Both the position numbers and the translations under genes were made by a program. A model generated the notes under the pieces. The model made no database searches. It saw only the letters and a program-made list of their open reading frames with translations, and was not told where the DNA came from. 64,000 bases of DNA from a bacterium. Its GTDB lineage: Bacteria; Patescibacteriota; Minisyncoccia; Moranbacterales; UBA9337. The DNA lies in assembly GCA_021159185.1 (NCBI GenBank), contig JAGGSH010000012.1:1235-65234 (forward strand). Reading direction: 5' to 3'. Below are positions 545-55,204 of this stretch, in pieces (within the stretch, counting starts at the first letter, position 1; every line of letters begins with the position of its first letter).

Positions 545-2308
545 ATGTCCGCTACTCTATATCGCAAATATCGCCCCCGGAAATTTTCCGATGTTATCGG
601 TCAGCAAGCTATCGTTAGAACTCTTTCCAACGCCGTGAAGTATAATCGCGTCGGACAGGCGTATCTTTTTGCCGGTCCGCGGGGAACCGGAAAAACCACC
701 TTGGCCAGAATTTTGGCTATGGCGGTTAATTGCGCCAATTTGTCCAGCGAGGAACGAGCTGATAACAAATTGAGCGTCCGCCGAAGCGAAGCGAAGGCGA
801 ATAAGCTTCCTAGCGAGAAACAAACCGCGGAACCTTGCTTTAAATGCGATGCCTGCCGGCAAATCTCACAGGGAAAATCTTTAGACATTATTGAAATTGA
901 CGCCGCTTCCAACACGGGAGTGGATAATATTCGAGAGCTAAGGGAAACCGTCAAGCTTCCTCCGGCTCAAGCGAAATATAAAGTGTATATTATAGATGAG
1001 GTTCACATGCTCTCCATCGGCGCTTTCAACGCGCTTCTCAAAACTCTGGAAGAACCGCCTGAACATGTGATTTTTATTTTGGCCACCACCGAAATCCACA
1101 AGCTTCCGGAAACTATTCTTTCCCGCTGCCAACGCTTTGATTTTTCCCGCCTCTCCTTGGAAAACATAATTAAGAAGCTGGCGTTAATCGCCAAGAGTGA
1201 AAAAGTTAAGATAGAAAAAGCGGCGTTGGAAATGATCGCTATGGCTGCTGAAGGCGGAATGCGAGACGCGGAATCACTGCTCTCCCAGATTATGTCGCTA
1301 GAAGACAAAAATATAACCTCCAAAGAAGTGGAAGAAATTCTGGGAACCACTAATCGCCAGCCCATAGAACAAATGGTTGATTATTTACTGCAAGGAAAAA
1401 CTTCTTCAGCCCTAAAACTCACCAGCCAATTAACCAAAGACGGGTATGATCTGGAGATTTTCAGCAAGTCTTTGCTTAATTATTTCCGCCAGCTAATGCT
1501 GATTGCCGTCAATCCTGAAACTGCCAAAAGTTTTTCCTTTGAACTTACTTCGGAGCAAATCAAAAAAATGGAAACGCTCGCCCGAAAATCCCCGGTTTCG
1601 GAAATTTTGAAAATAATTGATTTAATCAGCGAGGCAAAAGATAAAATAAAATCTTCCTTCATTCCTCAGCTTCCTTTGGAAATGGCAATCGTAAAAATTG
1701 GCCGCGAAGAAAATCCTCCATCTTTTTCAGAAACTAATCCACCAACCATTAATCCCTCCTCTGCTGCCAACCGTGAAAATCCGCCTCAAGAAAAAATTTC
1801 TCCTCCTGAACCTAAATCAGCCGAAGTTGAAACTAAACAGTCTGCTAAAATAATAAAGCCTAAAATTGAGCCGGATGTTTCAAAGAATATAGACAAAATA
1901 TCAGATAATAACAAACAAAATCCAGATTCTAAAAAATCCGAAGTTTCTCTTGACAATATCAAAGAAAACTGGAAAAATATATTAATTAAAGTTGAATCAC
2001 TGAATCATTCCATATCCTCCATTTTAGCCGGCTGCCAACCCATTAAGATTGAGAATAATATCATAGTTATTGCCACTAAATATGGTTTTTATAAAGACCG
2101 GCTCAATGAGAATAAAAACAAAAAAGCTATTGAAGATATTGTAAGCGACATTTTAAAATTTAAAATAAACATTGAAATTCTTACTGAAGAAGAATCCGGA
2201 GTGAAGCTGGAAACAGCCGATGAAAAACCTAGCGAGAAAAAAGGAACGCAGAGTAATTTGCTTTTATCCGACGCTATGGAAATGATGGGAGGAAAAATCG
2301 TTGAATAA
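545..2308 (+). CDS. dnaX: DNA polymerase III subunit gamma/tau
   Basis: N-terminus YRPRKFSDVIGQ, Walker A GPRGTGKTT and the CxxC zinc module match DnaX. A ~33-aa low-complexity insertion precedes the zinc module. C-terminal half is K/E/P-rich. Confidence 0.93.
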   Translation: MSATLYRKYRPRKFSDVIGQQAIVRTLSNAVKYNRVGQAYLFAGPRGTGKTTLARILAMAVNCANLSSEERADNKLSVRRSEAKANKLPSEKQTAEPCFKCDACRQISQGKSLDIIEIDAASNTGVDNIRELRETVKLPPAQAKYKVYIIDEVHMLSIGAFNALLKTLEEPPEHVIFILATTEIHKLPETILSRCQRFDFSRLSLENIIKKLALIAKSEKVKIEKAALEMIAMAAEGGMRDAESLLSQIMSLEDKNITSKEVEEILGTTNRQPIEQMVDYLLQGKTSSALKLTSQLTKDGYDLEIFSKSLLNYFRQLMLIAVNPETAKSFSFELTSEQIKKMETLARKSPVSEILKIIDLISEAKDKIKSSFIPQLPLEMAIVKIGREENPPSFSETNPPTINPSSAANRENPPQEKISPPEPKSAEVETKQSAKIIKPKIEPDVSKNIDKISDNNKQNPDSKKSEVSLDNIKENWKNILIKVESLNHSISSILAGCQPIKIENNIIVIATKYGFYKDRLNENKNKKAIEDIVSDILKFKINIEILTEEESGVKLETADEKPSEKKGTQSNLLLSDAMEMMGGKIVE

Positions 2309-4072: not shown

Positions 4073-4204
4073 CCTCCCCTCCTCTTTGAGGAGGGGATTG
4101 AGGGGTGGTGTGTGAATGCTCTGGCTGTAGACTTATTAGCTAAGCTGGTGATATTCACACCCCTCCGTCCCGCTAAGCGGGACACCTCCCCTCAAAGAGG
4201 GGAT
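4073..4204. repeat. Family C palindromic element (copy C1)
   Basis: Terminal hairpin CCCCTCCTCTTTGAGGAGGGG. Inner inverted repeats GAGGGGTGGTGTGTGAAT...ATTCACACCCCTC. The 3' hairpin is TCCCCTCAAAGAGGGGA. Second copy at 6050-6146. Confidence 0.8.
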
Positions 4205-4973: not shown

Positions 4974-5127
4974 CCCTCTCCCCATTTCCAAGAGGGAGAT
5001 GTCCGTAGGACAGAGGGGATTTCTTAATTTAAGTTTGAGCTAAAAATCTACACGCTCAATTATTCAATGCTTTTCAAATCCCCCCTGCTCGCTTCGCTTG
5101 CTTTCCCCCTTTTCTAAAGGGGGAGTT
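4974..5127. repeat. Family D palindromic element (copy D1)
   Basis: Terminal hairpins CTCTCCC..GGGAGAT and CCCCCTTTTCTAAAGGGGG. Internal GGGGATTTC...TTTTCAAATCCCCCC inverted motif is shared with D2 (50000-50133) and D3 (54357-54480). Confidence 0.75.
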
Positions 5128-6049: not shown

Positions 6050-6146
6050 CCTCCCCTCCTCTTTGAGGAGGGGATTGAGGGGTGGTGTTGTTTTCGCTGG
6101 CGATATTCACACCCCCCAGCCCTCCCCTCAAAGAGGGGAGGGGGCA
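6050..6146. repeat. Family C palindromic element (copy C2)
   Basis: CCTCCCCTCCTCTTTGAGGAGGGGATTGAGGGGTGGTGT...ATTCACACCCC..CCCTCAAAGAGGGGAGGGGG. Near-identical termini to C1. Confidence 0.8.
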
Positions 6147-6148
6147 AT

Positions 6149-6460
6149 TTAAAGCAACTCCGCGTCATCAATTGATTCTAAATCTATATCCTCGTCAAAA
6201 TTATCCAAGCTTTCTAAATCGCTTTCAAAATCTTCAATATCTGCCTCAAAATCAGCGTCTGAATTTCCCATATCAATTTCAGGGACTGTTTCATTTTCCG
6301 GCAAAATCTTTTCTTCCGATAAACTAGGGTTTAAATTACCAGCCGGAGCTGAAATTTCCAATTCGTCGTTTTTTAAAAAGCTACTATTTATAATCAATAG
6401 GATACCGGCTATGATAATAAATACTCCGAAAAGTATCCACCCGTAATATTTTTTTGCCAT
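6149..6460 (-). CDS. small membrane-anchored acidic protein
   Basis: N-terminal TM helix WILFGVFIIIAGILLII followed by a D/E-rich tail. Its 3' end abuts repeat C2. Confidence 0.4.
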   Translation of the reverse strand: MAKKYYGWILFGVFIIIAGILLIINSSFLKNDELEISAPAGNLNPSLSEEKILPENETVPEIDMGNSDADFEADIEDFESDLESLDNFDEDIDLESIDDAELL

Positions 6461-13630: not shown

Positions 13631-13780
13631 ATAATAGCATATGAGTGCTAAAAATAATAAGGCGCCATAATAAATACTGAATTTAAAATTACCTTCCACT
13701 ACTGCATAATCGTGCAGTAATCGCATAATGTTAAAATGAGATTGTGTGTCCTTATGTGGTTATATGGACATCTAGATACA

Positions 13781-13811
13781 AAAAACACTGAATTAAATTT
13801 CAGTGTTTTTT
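13781..13811. terminator. bidirectional rho-independent terminator
   Basis: AAAAACACTGAATTAAATTTCAGTGTTTTTT: 9-bp stem flanked by an A-run and a T-run. Sits between the convergent 12167..13630 (+) and rpsI (-). Confidence 0.6.
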
Positions 13812-13841
13812 GCAATAAAATAAATAAAAATTCGTAAAATC

Positions 13842-40533: not shown

Positions 40534-43059
40534 TTAAACCACAATATTAACCAACCGCCCCTTTATAAAAATAATCTTCTTAATTTCTTTTCCGCCAATG
40601 TGCTTCTGGATTTTTTCACTGGCTAAAACTTTTTCCTTGGCTTCTTCTTCGGAAATATCCGCCGGCGCTTGAATTTTATCCCGCACTTTCCCGTTAACTT
40701 GCGCCACTATTTCAATCATCTCATCCTTAACCATATCCGGATCATATTTTGGCCATTTTTGGTTAAAAATTGATTCCACCGGTTCTCCCCCTTTCTTAAA
40801 GGGAGAGCTAGGGGAAGATTTTAAGGCGTTAAACAACTCTTCGGCGATAAACGGAGCAAACGGCGAAAGCAAAATCAAAAATTTCTCCATCGCTTCCCTC
40901 GGCAGTACTTTGTGCCTGGGGCATTCATTTATAAAAATCATCAATTTACTGATCGCCGTATTAAATTTCAATCCCTCAACATCTTCTGTCACGCCCTTGA
41001 TGGTCTTGTGCAATAATCTTGACAACTCTTTGGACGCATTGGAAGTCGGAAACTTAAAATTTTGGAAAAGATTATAAATCTTTTCCAGAAACCGATAAAC
41101 TCCCTTTACCCCTTCTTCATTCCATGTTACATCCTCCTCCAACGGTCCGGCGAACATCATATACATTCTAGTAGCATCCGCGCCGAATTTTTTAACCATA
41201 TCATTAGGATTAACCACATTACCCTTGGACTTGCTCATCTTCACTCCGTTTTTATCCAAAACCATTCCTTGATGGCGAAGTTTTATGAAGGGTTCATCAA
41301 ACTCCAATAATCCCATCCCGTGCATCGCTTTCACGAAAAAGCGCGCGTATAAAAGATGCATATAAGTATGCTCCGCCCCGCCGATATATAAATCCACTGG
41401 CAGCCAGCGTTTTAATTTTTCTTTTGAACAAAATTCTTTTTCATTCTCCGTATCCGGATAACGCAAGAAATACCAGGAAGAATCCACAAAGGTGTCCATC
41501 GTGTCCGCTTCCGGCGTCCATCCTTTGCCAAAAATTTTCTCTGTTCGTTTTTTTAATTCTTTAGACTTCGCTAACGGCGCTTCGCCAGTTGGCGTGAAAT
41601 TAACATCCTCCGGCAGCAACCACGGCAAATTTTCCTCGCCGACAAATTTCGCTTCTCCTTCCGGAGAATAAACAATCGGGATCGGACAACCCCAATATCG
41701 CTGGCGGGAAATTGACCAATCTCGCAAGCGATAATTCATCGTCATCTTCCCGCCAATAAATTCCGTAATTGCCCTCTTCGCTTCCTCGCTATCCATTCCG
41801 TCAAATTTGCCGGAATTGATTAAAATTCCGGAACCGACATAAACTTCACAATCTTCTTTACTGTTCCTTGTTCCTTGTTCTCTGTTCCTTGTTCTCTGTT
41901 CCTTATTCTCTGATTCAATCACCTCTCTAACCGGCAAATTATATTTTTTCGCAAACTCAAAATCCCTTTCATCGTGCGCCGGAACTGCCATAATCGCGCC
42001 GGTACCGTAACCGCCCAAAACATAATCCGCTGTAAAAATTGGAATCTTCTCACCATTAGCCGGATTTATAGCAACTAATCCCTCTAATTTAACGCCTGTT
42101 TTTTCTTTGCTTTCCAATCGCTCCATTTCTGTTTTGTTTTTCGCTCGCTCAATATATCTTTTTACATCCTCGTGATTCCTAATCATTAAATCATTATTCT
42201 CGGGGAGTGAAGCGACAAATTTATGTTCCGGCGCCAACACTAAATAAGTCGCCCCGAAAAGCGTGTCTGGTCTGGTTGTAAAAACTTTAATGAAATTTTC
42301 ATTCTTTTGAATTTTGGATTTTGGGTTTGATTTGGATAATTTGGATTTTGAAATAATTTGAAATTTTATAATTGCTCCTTCACTTTTGCCAATCCACGCT
42401 CTCTGGTTTTTCTTAGTCGCTTCCGGCCAGTCAACTTTATCTAAATCCTTAATTAAATCCTCGGCAAATCCGGTAATTTTAAAAAACCAACCCGGAACTT
42501 CTTTTTGTTTAATTTTCGTTTTGCACCGCTCGCACTTTCCATCTGCTACCTGTTCATTGGCAATCACCGTCTGGCAAGATGGGCACCAATTGATTTCATC
42601 GGTTTTTCTCTTAACTAATCCATTCTCAAAAAATTTGCCGAAAATCCATTGGGTCCATTTATAATAAGACGGGCTGGAAGTTCGGATTAAATTTGAAAAG
42701 TCATAGCCAAATCCCAGCATTTTCATCTGCTTAATGTAATTTTTTATGTTCTTTTCGGTAGTTTTTTTTGGATGAACGCCGGTTTTAATCGCGTAATTTT
42801 CCGCCGGCAAACCGAAAGAATCAAATCCTTGCCGATGCAAAACATCATATCCCTGCAGTTTTTTAAAGCGGTAAATTATATCCGAAGCCGTGTAAGATTC
42901 CGTATGCCCCATATGCAAACCGTCTCCCGAAGGATACGGAAACATATCCAAAATATAATACTTCGGCTTCTTCTTATTTCCTTTGGTTTTATAAAGCCCC
43001 TTTTCCTCCCAATATTTTCTCCATTTCCGCTCTATTTTTGAAAAGTTATATTTTACCAT
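40534..43059 (-). CDS. leuS: leucyl-tRNA synthetase
   Basis: HMGH motif (PYPSGDGLHMGHTESYT), KMSKS (VKMSKSKGN), CP1 editing domain, C-terminal anticodon-binding region. Contains two low-complexity insertions encoded by repeats (41861-41917 and 42290-42370). Confidence 0.95.
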   Translation of the reverse strand: MVKYNFSKIERKWRKYWEEKGLYKTKGNKKKPKYYILDMFPYPSGDGLHMGHTESYTASDIIYRFKKLQGYDVLHRQGFDSFGLPAENYAIKTGVHPKKTTEKNIKNYIKQMKMLGFGYDFSNLIRTSSPSYYKWTQWIFGKFFENGLVKRKTDEINWCPSCQTVIANEQVADGKCERCKTKIKQKEVPGWFFKITGFAEDLIKDLDKVDWPEATKKNQRAWIGKSEGAIIKFQIISKSKLSKSNPKSKIQKNENFIKVFTTRPDTLFGATYLVLAPEHKFVASLPENNDLMIRNHEDVKRYIERAKNKTEMERLESKEKTGVKLEGLVAINPANGEKIPIFTADYVLGGYGTGAIMAVPAHDERDFEFAKKYNLPVREVIESENKEQRTRNREQGTRNSKEDCEVYVGSGILINSGKFDGMDSEEAKRAITEFIGGKMTMNYRLRDWSISRQRYWGCPIPIVYSPEGEAKFVGEENLPWLLPEDVNFTPTGEAPLAKSKELKKRTEKIFGKGWTPEADTMDTFVDSSWYFLRYPDTENEKEFCSKEKLKRWLPVDLYIGGAEHTYMHLLYARFFVKAMHGMGLLEFDEPFIKLRHQGMVLDKNGVKMSKSKGNVVNPNDMVKKFGADATRMYMMFAGPLEEDVTWNEEGVKGVYRFLEKIYNLFQNFKFPTSNASKELSRLLHKTIKGVTEDVEGLKFNTAISKLMIFINECPRHKVLPREAMEKFLILLSPFAPFIAEELFNALKSSPSSPFKKGGEPVESIFNQKWPKYDPDMVKDEMIEIVAQVNGKVRDKIQAPADISEEEAKEKVLASEKIQKHIGGKEIKKIIFIKGRLVNIVV
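41861..41917. repeat. tandem 14-nt repeat (CTGTTCCTTGTTCT)x~3.5 inside leuS
   Basis: Encodes EQRTRNREQGTRNS within LeuS. Confidence 0.75.
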
Positions 43060-45059: not shown

Positions 45060-46475
<1,416 letters not shown>

Positions 46476-49959: not shown

Positions 49960-49999
49960 ATCAAAATTAAAAAATATCTTATGAAAAATGGTTTAATGA

Positions 50000-50133
50000 C
50001 CTCCCCCTTTGGAAAAGGGGGAAAGTGAGTGGAGCAAGCAGGGGGATTTGAAAGAGTTAGAAAATGACAATCGCAAGGAATAAATTAGAAGTTTTCAAAT
50101 CCCCCGCGAATGCTGCCCAAAGGAGGAGCTAAA
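50000..50133. repeat. Family D palindromic element (copy D2, atpE-atpF spacer)
   Basis: CTCCCCCTTTGGAAAAGGGGGAAAG...GGGGGATTTGAAAG...TTTTCAAATCCCCC...CCAAAGGAGGAGC. Confidence 0.75.
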
Positions 50134-53674: not shown

Positions 53675-55204
53675 TTATTTTATTCTTTTAAATAAAACTT
53701 CGTTAAGCCTTTCAGTCTTCAGCGCCTTTTTGATCTTCTCCGCAGTCTCAGACATAAAAGGTTTCAAAAATTCCGCTATTAAACTTAAATCATCAACTAG
53801 TTTCTGTATTACTTTTCTAAACTCCTCTTTTTTACTTTCATCCTTAGCCAATTCCCAAGGTTTAGCATCTTCAATATATTTATTGTCCTCGCGCACAATA
53901 TTCCAAACATAATTCAATGCTTTGTCCAGTTCCAGCTCATCAATTTTTTTTGAAAATTGTTCATTATTTATTGTTTTATGTTTCATATTCCATGTTCCAT
54001 GTTCCATGAGCTTCACTACTCGTGAAATCAGATTTCCCAACCCGTTCGCCAAATCAGCATTGTATTTTTCAACCATTCTTTCCATTGTCATATCAATATC
54101 TTCTCCGAATGATCCCGCGCTCATTAAAAGATAGCGTGTTCCGTCCGTCCCGAATTTTTCCAGCATTTCATCTATACCTATAACATTGCCCAGCGTCTTG
54201 CTCATTTTTTTGCCTTCCGATAAAATATGCCCGTGAACAAATAATTCCCGTGGTAATTCAATTCCGAGATGCAAAAGCATGATCGGCCACATAGTGGCAT
54301 GCATTCTTAAAATATCTTTTCCAATAAGCTGAATATCCGGCGGCCAAAATCCTAGATTCTCCCCCTTTAGAAAAGGGGACCGGGGGGATTTGAAAGATTC
54401 TTTACTTTGTAAAATATTACTTTCATCCACTACATTATTCTTCAAATCCCTCTCTAACTCTCCCTTTTCCAAAGGGAGAGAACCATTCCACCCAACCCCC
54501 GTTAAATAATTCAGAAAAGCATCCACCCAAACATAGGTGGTATAATTTTTATCAAAAGGAAGCGGGATCCCCCAAGAAACATTTTTTCTGGAAATGGAAA
54601 CATCCTGCAATTTCTGTCTTTCCAAAAAAGAAAGGATTTCTCTTTTGTATTTTTCCGGACCAATTTTAAATTCATCGCTTTTTATTTTTTCAGTCAGCTG
54701 TGATTGGACTTCTTCCATTTTCAAAAGATAGCTTTCCTCTTTTATTATTTCCGGTTTAATGTTATGTTCCGGACATTTTCCGTCCACCAAATCGCTTTTA
54801 TTTTTAAACTGTTCGCATCCAACACAATATAATCCTTCATAAGTTCCTTTATAGATCAAGCCTTTATCGTATAACAATTGCAAAACTTTTTGGACTGTTT
54901 CTTTATGCTTTTTGTCAGTGGTGCGGATAAAATTATCGTAGTTTATATTCAACTTCTCGCATAAACTTTTAAATTCTTCCGCGATTTCATCCACGAACTG
55001 CTGAGAATCTTTCCCGGCTTCTTCGGTCTTTTTCTGGATTTTTAATCCATATTCATCCGTTCCCGTAAGCAGAAAAGTTTTTTTACGCTGTTGCCTATTC
55101 CAGCGCGCTAAAATATCCGCCGCCACAGTTGTGTAAGCATGCCCTATATGCGGCTTGGCATTTGCGTAATATATAGGAGTAGTGATATAAAATTTGTTTT
55201 TCAT
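53675..55204 (-). CDS. metG: methionyl-tRNA synthetase (short form, no C-terminal tRNA-binding domain) carrying an in-frame repeat-derived insertion
   Basis: HIGH motif (PIYYANAKPHIGHAYT), four Cys zinc knuckle, KMSKS (KMSKTLGN). Residues LPLEKGELERDLKNNVVDESNILQSKESFKSPRSPFLKGENLG between LNY...and...WPPDIQLIGKDIL are encoded by Family D copy D3. Confidence 0.92.
   Translation of the reverse strand: MKNKFYITTPIYYANAKPHIGHAYTTVAADILARWNRQQRKKTFLLTGTDEYGLKIQKKTEEAGKDSQQFVDEIAEEFKSLCEKLNINYDNFIRTTDKKHKETVQKVLQLLYDKGLIYKGTYEGLYCVGCEQFKNKSDLVDGKCPEHNIKPEIIKEESYLLKMEEVQSQLTEKIKSDEFKIGPEKYKREILSFLERQKLQDVSISRKNVSWGIPLPFDKNYTTYVWVDAFLNYLTGVGWNGSLPLEKGELERDLKNNVVDESNILQSKESFKSPRSPFLKGENLGFWPPDIQLIGKDILRMHATMWPIMLLHLGIELPRELFVHGHILSEGKKMSKTLGNVIGIDEMLEKFGTDGTRYLLMSAGSFGEDIDMTMERMVEKYNADLANGLGNLISRVVKLMEHGTWNMKHKTINNEQFSKKIDELELDKALNYVWNIVREDNKYIEDAKPWELAKDESKKEEFRKVIQKLVDDLSLIAEFLKPFMSETAEKIKKALKTERLNEVLFKRIK
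54357..54480. repeat. Family D palindromic element (copy D3, inside the metG coding sequence)
   Basis: CCCCCTTTAGAAAAGGGGACCGGGGGGATTTGAAAG...CTTCAAATCCCTCTC...CTCCCTTTTCCAAAGGGAGAG. The two terminal hairpins translate to SPFLKGE and LPLEKGE. Confidence 0.8.

Follow-up and report, generated by a model that had tools for sequence, protein, structure and literature searches.

Rickettsia palindromic elements (RPEs; Ogata et al. 2000, 2002) are repeats of ~100-150 bp that lie between genes and also in-frame within housekeeping genes; the open reading frames (ORFs) that bear them are intact, and the extra peptide has been judged compatible with the fold (PMC10969869, PMC3733652). Repetitive extragenic palindromes (REPs) and REPINs are short GC-rich hairpins, often arranged as inverted doublets that fold into one long hairpin (Bertels and Rainey 2011, PMC3116915), and one end of a REP unit bears the tetranucleotide GTAG or CGTC as a tag (PMC3733652); REPs are for the most part located downstream of genes, with occasional cases within them, uvrA and uvrB included (Di Nocera et al. 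2013, PMC3733652; PMC3184786). [quoted passage not shown] Here we describe a nested-palindromic repeat, termed Family D, of which one copy is embedded in metG, the methionyl-tRNA synthetase (MetRS) gene, within a 64,000-nt stretch (the window) of contig JAGGSH010000012.1 from a Moranbacterales bacterium of the candidate phyla radiation (CPR). This insert is, very probably, a passenger copy of a small non-coding repeat that is tolerated as a loop of MetRS.

The resemblance to RPEs lies in the presence of multi-copy palindromes of ~100-150 bp that sit in-frame in metG and leuS, both of them intact, with two intergenic copies, all within 64 kb. The host here, by contrast, is a CPR bacterium, Moranbacteria-like by its best named MetRS matches, and the likeness is claimed as a functional analogy only. 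A literature search for CPR bacteria together with MITEs found no report of such elements in these organisms. In-frame selfish palindromes are already known; what is new is the family and its host, and what is unusual is the degree to which a single site has been hit repeatedly.

The metG ORF runs uninterrupted through the element (LPLEKGE...SPFLKGE), which consists, in order, of a hairpin, GGGGGATTTGAAAG, an AT-rich core, CTTCAAATCCC and a second hairpin (Table 1). On the plus strand, positions 54346-54482 read AAAATCCTAGATT, CTCCCCCTTTAGAAAAGGGGAC, C-GGGGGGATTTGAAAG, the 43-nt core, CTTCAAATCCC, TCTCTAA and CTCTCCCTTTTCCAAAGGGAGAG. The 21-nt outer arms (54357-54377 and 54462-54482) show 90% complementarity and so form terminal inverted repeats of the MITE type, and the inner arms GGGATTTGAA (54385-54394) and TTCAAATCCC (54441-54450) are 100% complementary. 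Complementarity also exists between the two hairpins, which makes the whole element a nested palindrome; in its mRNA form the fold has -61.8 kcal/mol (z=-4.65), a value reached by none of 200 shuffled sequences. Its 126 nt make 42 codons without a stop in the frame used, which is one of two open frames among the six, and would yield the peptide SLPLEKGELERDLKNNVVDESNILQSKESFKSPRSPFLKGE. As the length is a multiple of three and no stop lies in frame, the copy would be transcribed and translated along with the rest of metG. The original prediction of a palindromic element in-frame within metG, with both terminal hairpins in the reading frame as LPLEKGE and SPFLKGE, is borne out by the sequence, the inverted repeats and the continuous ORF. 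Its extent, given as 54357-54480 (~124 bp), needed correction: the element spans 54357-54482, and element-derived DNA probably reaches 54346 (AAAATCCTAG). The AAAATCCTAG module, hairpin A and GGGGGGATTT together complete a 'compact unit' (AAATCC..-hairpin-GGGGATTT), and the same flank, AATTTAGGATTTTGGCCG, comes after the single hairpin in the orthologue P0035 (locus L208).

Two intergenic copies, D1 and D2, had been placed elsewhere in the window, and both are present at those positions. They share four modules with the metG copy in identical order, while their cores are unrelated and an additional spacer of 15-18 nt is without counterpart in metG. A profile hidden Markov model (HMM) built from 118 units, all from non-CPR genomes, was used in a 1.03-Mb search; it recognises all three copies as well as a degenerate single unit in leuS, and the claimed nucleotide likeness of the metG copy to D1 and D2 thereby survives proper comparison. 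Membership of the metG insert in the family is therefore established, and the 64 kb of the window contain one single unit besides the extended copies, of which there are three (126, 154 and 134 nt). Chance does not produce such numbers: GGGGGATTTGAAAG with up to two mismatches has six matches in the window where 1.07 are expected, a count that none of 100 shuffles attained, and the hairpin pattern has two against 0.01 expected. Scans at D1 and D2 for terminators found no terminator-like site (GC-rich stem followed by a T-run). With lengths that are not multiples of three, D1 and D2 carry stops in all six frames; that the metG copy is open where these two are not is the expected outcome of a survivorship filter in an essential gene. 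By our own reading of the sequence, the conserved modules are largely stop-free, which would make tolerated insertions more likely.

The family extends far beyond the window. The pattern CCCCTTTNNNNAAGGGGN{1,30}GGGGATTTGAA was scanned against one genome per GTDB species, and the matches listed comprise at least 120 loci in more than ten phyla, where we estimate ~0.1 chance matches (24 specified bases, uniform base composition). Among the matches listed are Desulfobacterota, Nitrospirota, Nitrospinota, Chloroflexota, Elusimicrobiota, Omnitrophota, Atribacterota, Planctomycetota (Scalindua), Proteobacteria (Gallionella, Methylobacter and the isolate Iodobacter arcticus) and others. The unit occurs in a compact arrangement, AAATCCCCC-n3-CCCCCTTT-n4-AAAGGGGG-n3-GGGGGATTT, and in an extended doublet of hairpin, GGGGGATTTGAA, core, TTCAAATCCCCC and hairpin, the latter being the architecture of Family D; among the 120 matches listed, 36 doublets of facing units have gaps of <100 nt. 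Nearer to the window, the relative L005 carries a complete intergenic Family D copy at 6095-6224.

Genic copies are likewise not confined to metG. In other phyla, units lie in-frame in long ORFs and encode peptides such as IPLNPPFxKGGxGGF; judged by eye from motifs, genic hosts include NadE-like, BioA-like and UvrA-like genes and an ABC transporter linker, and a Tgt-like protein in another CPR genome, also assigned by eye, contains an in-frame unit. The unit in the window leuS lies in the linker before the C-terminal domain (…ALKSSPSSPFKKGGEPVES…), at a place where the LeuRS structures 3ziu and 1h3n show an 11-residue gap, and proteins recognised by eye as the LeuRS of two Nitrosomonadales-like genomes have an in-frame unit at orthologous positions.

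The GC-rich hairpin units, their inverted doublets and the presence of UvrA-like genes in the cross-phylum set all recall REPs and REPINs. Several features set the unit apart, however. No GTAG or CGTC tag is found beside the window hairpins or in the unit consensus GAAATCCC..TTCCCCCTTTAGAAAAGGGGGGTTAGGGGGGATTTGAAGT, and the doublet has an AT-rich core of 40-60 nt and conserved GGGGGATTTGAA arms. REP families are usually species- or genus-specific, whereas the unit described here is nearly identical across phyla, and in this breadth it also differs from RPEs, a feature of Rickettsia. Clustering of ORFs from 8-kb loci around 120 listed copies outside the window returned housekeeping families only and no recurrent REP-associated tyrosine transposase (RAYT) or other transposase, the window ORFs not having been screened. 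With MITEs the element shares its small size, lack of coding content, multiple copies, inverted ends and in-frame placement when intragenic, but no parent insertion sequence was identified, and its termini are self-complementary hairpins instead of simple terminal inverted repeats. A literature search with the sequence string GGGGGATTT returned irrelevant papers only.

The insert is derived within MetRS. In the 112 nearest MetRS homologues with a loop that could be delimited, the segment between LNYLTG and WP is 13 aa long in 68 cases (consensus GWDGDEKNIPEF) and 16-50 aa long in 40, compared to 50 aa in the window. Where CPR orthologues allowed the longer segment from W..DA..NY to GKDILRVH to be located, at identities as low as 42%, most of them show a length of 40 aa, and Aquifex MetRS has ~7 residues against 49 in the window MetRS. 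The alignment with orthologues thus shows that the long insert is absent from most relatives, and the addition of ~40 residues between the LNY and WP blocks stands, although the normal loop length had been put at 15-20 aa and is 13 aa in close orthologues. In a neighbour-joining tree built without the loop, long loops are polyphyletic and scattered among lineages with 13 aa.

When inspected at the DNA level, the long loops proved to be mostly palindromic. Some hold the same element or related units, others hold palindromes with no relation to Family D (Table 1), and at least five unrelated palindrome families have contributed inserts overall. Two of these unrelated families have more copies elsewhere; for one, an identical 34-nt stretch (CCCGCCTTCGCTAAAGCTTCGGCGGG with flanks) is present in L211 and in a distant CPR genome, L163, where it lies outside metG. 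Since palindromic inserts recur at this position and are scattered across the tree, small palindromic elements have in the MetRS loop a hot spot of insertion or one of the rare sites where insertion is tolerated, and the window insert is one such event. Repeated hits on one loop by several families were not found described for RPEs.

Two further observations concern length variation in MetRS. Some 'empty' 13-aa loops (GDLKNIP) are encoded by DNA, in L133 GGCGATTTGAAAAATATCCCCGAC, that resembles the inner arms GGGGATTTGAAA and AAATCCCC of the element, a likeness that may stem from mimicry of the target or from what is left of an old element. In addition, the MetRS alignment is length-variable at a second site, around window residues ~400-415 between the catalytic and anticodon-binding domains, where some orthologues have extra segments, among them SISPPKADQPWAG in P0008 and a 20-aa insert in P0106; insertions may be tolerated here too.

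The host protein appears to have retained its fold. The metG product is a MetRS (Pfam tRNA-synt_1g, E=3e-93; PDB MetRS matches, E=1e-113) with its catalytic and zinc-knuckle motifs intact (HIGH19, KMSK333, CVGC127, CPEH144). AlphaFold2, run with an 88-sequence alignment, gave a model of mean pLDDT 80.8 and pTM 0.80 that matches MetRS structures with TM 0.76-0.79; residues 246-282 have a pLDDT of 33-38, while the flanking blocks reach 84-92. The model thus predicts an insert that emerges from a loop without structure of its own, and an intact core. Of the tolerated surface loop that had been proposed, the model supports a low-pLDDT loop on a confident, intact core; its exposure at the surface and its distance from the tRNA are presumed.

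The gene itself is a mosaic with three tract switches. Nucleotides 45-675 and 945-1125 of the window metG are P0003-like (83-92% identity, as against 62-84% to P0002), while nucleotides 675-900, which contain the element, and 1125-1530 are P0002-like (90-98%). This pattern points to homologous recombination within the gene, between CPR lineages. Compared to the P0002 copy, the element has 6 changes in 126 nt (95% identity), five of them nonsynonymous and one synonymous; outside the element, the window and P0002 metG genes differ by 84 nonsynonymous and 100 synonymous codon differences. We read this as an element-bearing patch that moved by homologous recombination and encodes a peptide under little constraint. 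That the P0002 orthologue shares the insert, which might have marked it as ancestral coding sequence, does not refute its origin as an element, as the insert sits in a recombination patch of 90-97% identity. Around the single hairpin of P0035, local identity to the window is modestly raised in a region that is already conserved. The insert is intact in P0001 (JGI) and in L001-L004 and L128 (ENA, JGI, Logan), which come from different samples and assemblers, and its presence in independent assemblies rules out misassembly. P0001 (JGI, 432 aa) is identical to the window MetRS over residues 1 to ~425 and then has a different, short C-terminus (…EQFSKKLMSWNNRSGYIF), which points to a frameshift near codon 425, present as a variant or produced by an error in sequencing.

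We therefore propose the following course of events. A copy of a repeat made of two GC-rich inverted hairpins, each followed inward by GGGGGATTTGAA and placed around an AT-rich core, would have entered the DNA of a short surface loop of MetRS, between the end of the LNYLTG helix and the WPxDxQLIGKD strand. The resulting ~37-42 hydrophilic residues, predicted to be disordered, would leave the catalytic fold in place, and the insert would persist most likely as a near-neutral passenger and not for a function. In the window lineage, a patch of ~225 nt appears to have been gained or exchanged by homologous recombination with the allele of a relative. The claim that a repeat-family element in an essential gene is tolerated as a loop draws support from the loop length, the family HMM, the recurrence at the site, the AlphaFold2 model and the intact motifs, with mobility as the inferred part.

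The insert could instead have been co-opted, with the loop or the mRNA hairpin under selection, for instance in the regulation of metG translation or mRNA stability or as a new interaction surface. An intact frame kept in at least two lineages at 95% nucleotide identity, along with the preserved hairpin stems, would fit such a role, and the loop at this site is presumably long in other MetRS types such as that of E. coli. We nevertheless hold co-option to be very unlikely: insert sequences at the site are hypervariable and stem from unrelated families, the peptide changes freely (5/6 substitutions nonsynonymous), the recombination patch, flanks included, explains the high identity, and P0035 has a collapsed version with one hairpin.

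Even less credence can be given to removal or skipping of the element during expression, whether by hairpin RNA processing and religation or by ribosomal bypassing. Translational-bypass elements, as in T4 gene 60 and the mitochondrial 'byps', are short structured inserts that lie in essential coding sequences without destroying the gene, and the very stable hairpin of ~126 nt that the metG mRNA can form (-61.8 kcal/mol) is the type of structure known from bypassing. Bypass inserts are skipped and so need be neither in-frame nor stop-free. The metG insert, however, is exactly 42 codons long and stop-free, and the frame is kept in each of the 40 orthologues with an insert and in the other genic copies, which skipping would not need; that frame and openness are always kept points to read-through translation. 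Self-splicing introns and inteins are far larger than the metG insert. No Hint domain was detected by Pfam in the 42-aa insert, and no Rfam family or intron-like feature was found: at gathering thresholds Rfam reported tRNAs only in the whole window, and a permissive search of 54250-54600 returned sub-threshold miRNA-like hairpins (best 22 bits, against a gathering score of 211). Excision at the RNA level, offered as an option in the original prediction, is hence unsupported.

The least probable alternative is an ordinary lineage-specific coding loop that evolved in place and that the intergenic repeats merely resemble or derive from: P0002 has the same 50-aa loop and loops of >13 aa occur throughout the small clade of the window, but a profile from other phyla recognises the insert (E=2.1e-10), its DNA is a nested palindrome (z=-4.65), its substitutions are mostly nonsynonymous, the copy in common with P0002 lies in a recombination patch, and in other lineages this site is taken up by palindromes of unrelated kinds.

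Several points weigh against the passenger-copy reading. Neither a target-site duplication nor sharp termini nor a transposase was found, so that mobility is read from the distribution of copies, and filled and empty alleles within one population were not seen. At the metG junctions no direct repeat is visible, and the boundaries are uncertain because part of the ancestral loop codons has given way to other sequence. The old loop is thus more than interrupted; the event was therefore not a clean insertion, or the site has been remodelled since. The insert is 95% identical to that of P0002 compared to 62-84% elsewhere, and selection at the nucleotide level would give the same pattern. Low pLDDT is no proof of disorder or surface exposure, and translation through the insert is a prediction. 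Finally, searches with full-length proteins would miss orthologues with frame-breaking inserts.

A possible source of mobility is suggested by five loci in other phyla (Desulfobacterota/Syntrophales-type), where inverted hairpin-GGGGGATTT units directly bracket an ORF of ~120 aa. This ORF, at the position of the core, encodes a DUF559 protein (PF04480 and PF18741), a Vsr-like endonuclease that is not a known transposase, and the 3' unit encodes its last residues. In two of these loci, L212 and L220, no further units were found in the 5.4-kb locus. The hairpin-GGGGGATTT unit might accordingly be a pan-bacterial selfish element whose gene-bearing form carries a DUF559 (PD-(D/E)XK) endonuclease and whose gene-less derivatives include Family D, with the MetRS loop both targeted and tolerant, a hot spot owing in part to native DNA (GGCGATTTGAAAAATATCCCC in L133) that is like the inner arms. 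We regard this scheme as doubtful, and targeting through GGCGATTTGAAAAATATCCCC-like empty loops is speculative. The sample of DUF559 loci is biased, identical DUF559 proteins each occurred in a single genomic context, where differing contexts would have spoken for mobility, and the window is without DUF559; among the DUF559 papers covered by title or abstract, none links the family to repeats.

With these findings, the phenomenon of selfish DNA within genes for proteins, of which Rickettsia is the best-known case, is extended to tiny CPR genomes and at least two aminoacyl-tRNA synthetases. In about one third of close orthologues, a 13-aa loop of an essential enzyme has taken in inserts that add as many as 37 residues and derive from at least five unrelated palindrome families, and such an insertion-tolerant loop may be usable for protein engineering. 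Inserts of this kind both inflate and distort protein alignments and gene trees of CPR marker genes, and they also create recombination patches. The near-identity across phyla and the pairing with DUF559 point to a mobilising mechanism that has not yet been described.

Table 1. Coordinates of the metG element, its parts and related copies (window positions unless a locus is named).
Feature	Location	Strand	Remarks
metG (MetRS)	53675-55204	minus	intact ORF, 509 aa, contains element
Nested palindromic element	54357-54482	minus (translated)	126 nt, ~residues 242-283, peptide SLPLEKGELERDLKNNVVDESNILQSKESFKSPRSPFLKGE
Outer AAAATCCTAG module	54346-54355	no strand	encodes part of NLGF; within reach of HMM match 54349-54395; boundary inferred
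Hairpin A CTCCCCCTTTAGAAAAGGGGAC	54359-54380	no strand	translated SPFLKGE
Inner repeat, left arm GGGGGGATTTGAAAG	54382-54396	no strand	inverted-repeat analysis
AT-rich variable core	54397-54439	no strand	43 nt, 21% GC; differs between copies
Inner repeat, right arm CTTCAAATCCC	54440-54450	no strand	inverted-repeat analysis
Hairpin B CTCTCCCTTTTCCAAAGGGAGAG	54458-54480	no strand	perfect 10-bp stem; translated LPLEKGE
D1, intergenic Family D copy	4974-5127	no strand	154 nt; stops in all six frames; HMM E=1.5e-8
D2, intergenic Family D copy	50000-50133	no strand	134 nt; right hairpin partly deleted; HMM E=6.5e-8
Degenerate single unit in leuS (40534-43059)	40779-40814	minus	in-frame SSPSSPFKKGGEP; HMM E=2e-3
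HMM match, metG copy	54349-54395		E=2.1e-10
HMM match, metG copy, other half	54482-54440		E=3e-3
HMM match, D1	5127-5073		E=1.5e-8
HMM match, D2	49997-50053		E=6.5e-8
HMM match, unit in leuS	40779-40814		E=2e-3
P0002 (L001-4, L128)	MetRS loop		same element as window
P0006 (L005, L130, L146)	MetRS loop		same start point (after GGT TCT); two hairpins and GTTGGAGAGGGATTT
P0076 (L209)	MetRS loop		perfect compact unit, -48 kcal/mol
P0035 (L208)	MetRS loop		single hairpin inside exactly the window's flanks
L147, L151 (MetRS ~50% identical)	MetRS loop		single units
L131/132, L165, L210, L211	MetRS loop		four unrelated palindromes
Unrelated-family copies	L163 14863-14896; L193 12953-12978; L150 765-788		
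In-frame copies	L081 262-296; L089 2362-2396; L038 6041-6075		
In-frame copies	L049 3354-3388; L123 631-665; L079 1219-1253		
In-frame copies	L098 3882-3916; L111 7623-7657; L149 2304-2321		
DUF559-bracketing loci	L014 2381-2825; L123 ~1745-2290; L107 ~1384-1770		
DUF559-bracketing loci	L212 2441-2495 and 2849-2885; L220 2369-2480 and 2846-2886		

The window contains other hairpins besides those of Family D. A hairpin-like match at 46004-46027 is not an element, being conserved AtpD sequence. A second hairpin family is present at 4075-4097, 6052-6074 and 6120-6142 (TCCCCTCCTCTTTGAGGAGGGGA and CCCTCCCCTCAAAGAGGGGAGGG). Its copy at 4075-4097 looked genic and was rejected as such, as it lies just upstream of the probable true start of rplJ; at 6052-6142, two hairpins of this family flank GAGGGGTGGTG…CACACCCCCC in a doublet architecture like that of Family D. 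Unrelated to Family D are two perfect AT-rich intergenic hairpins at 374-407 and 13779-13812, with stems of 15 and 14 bp.

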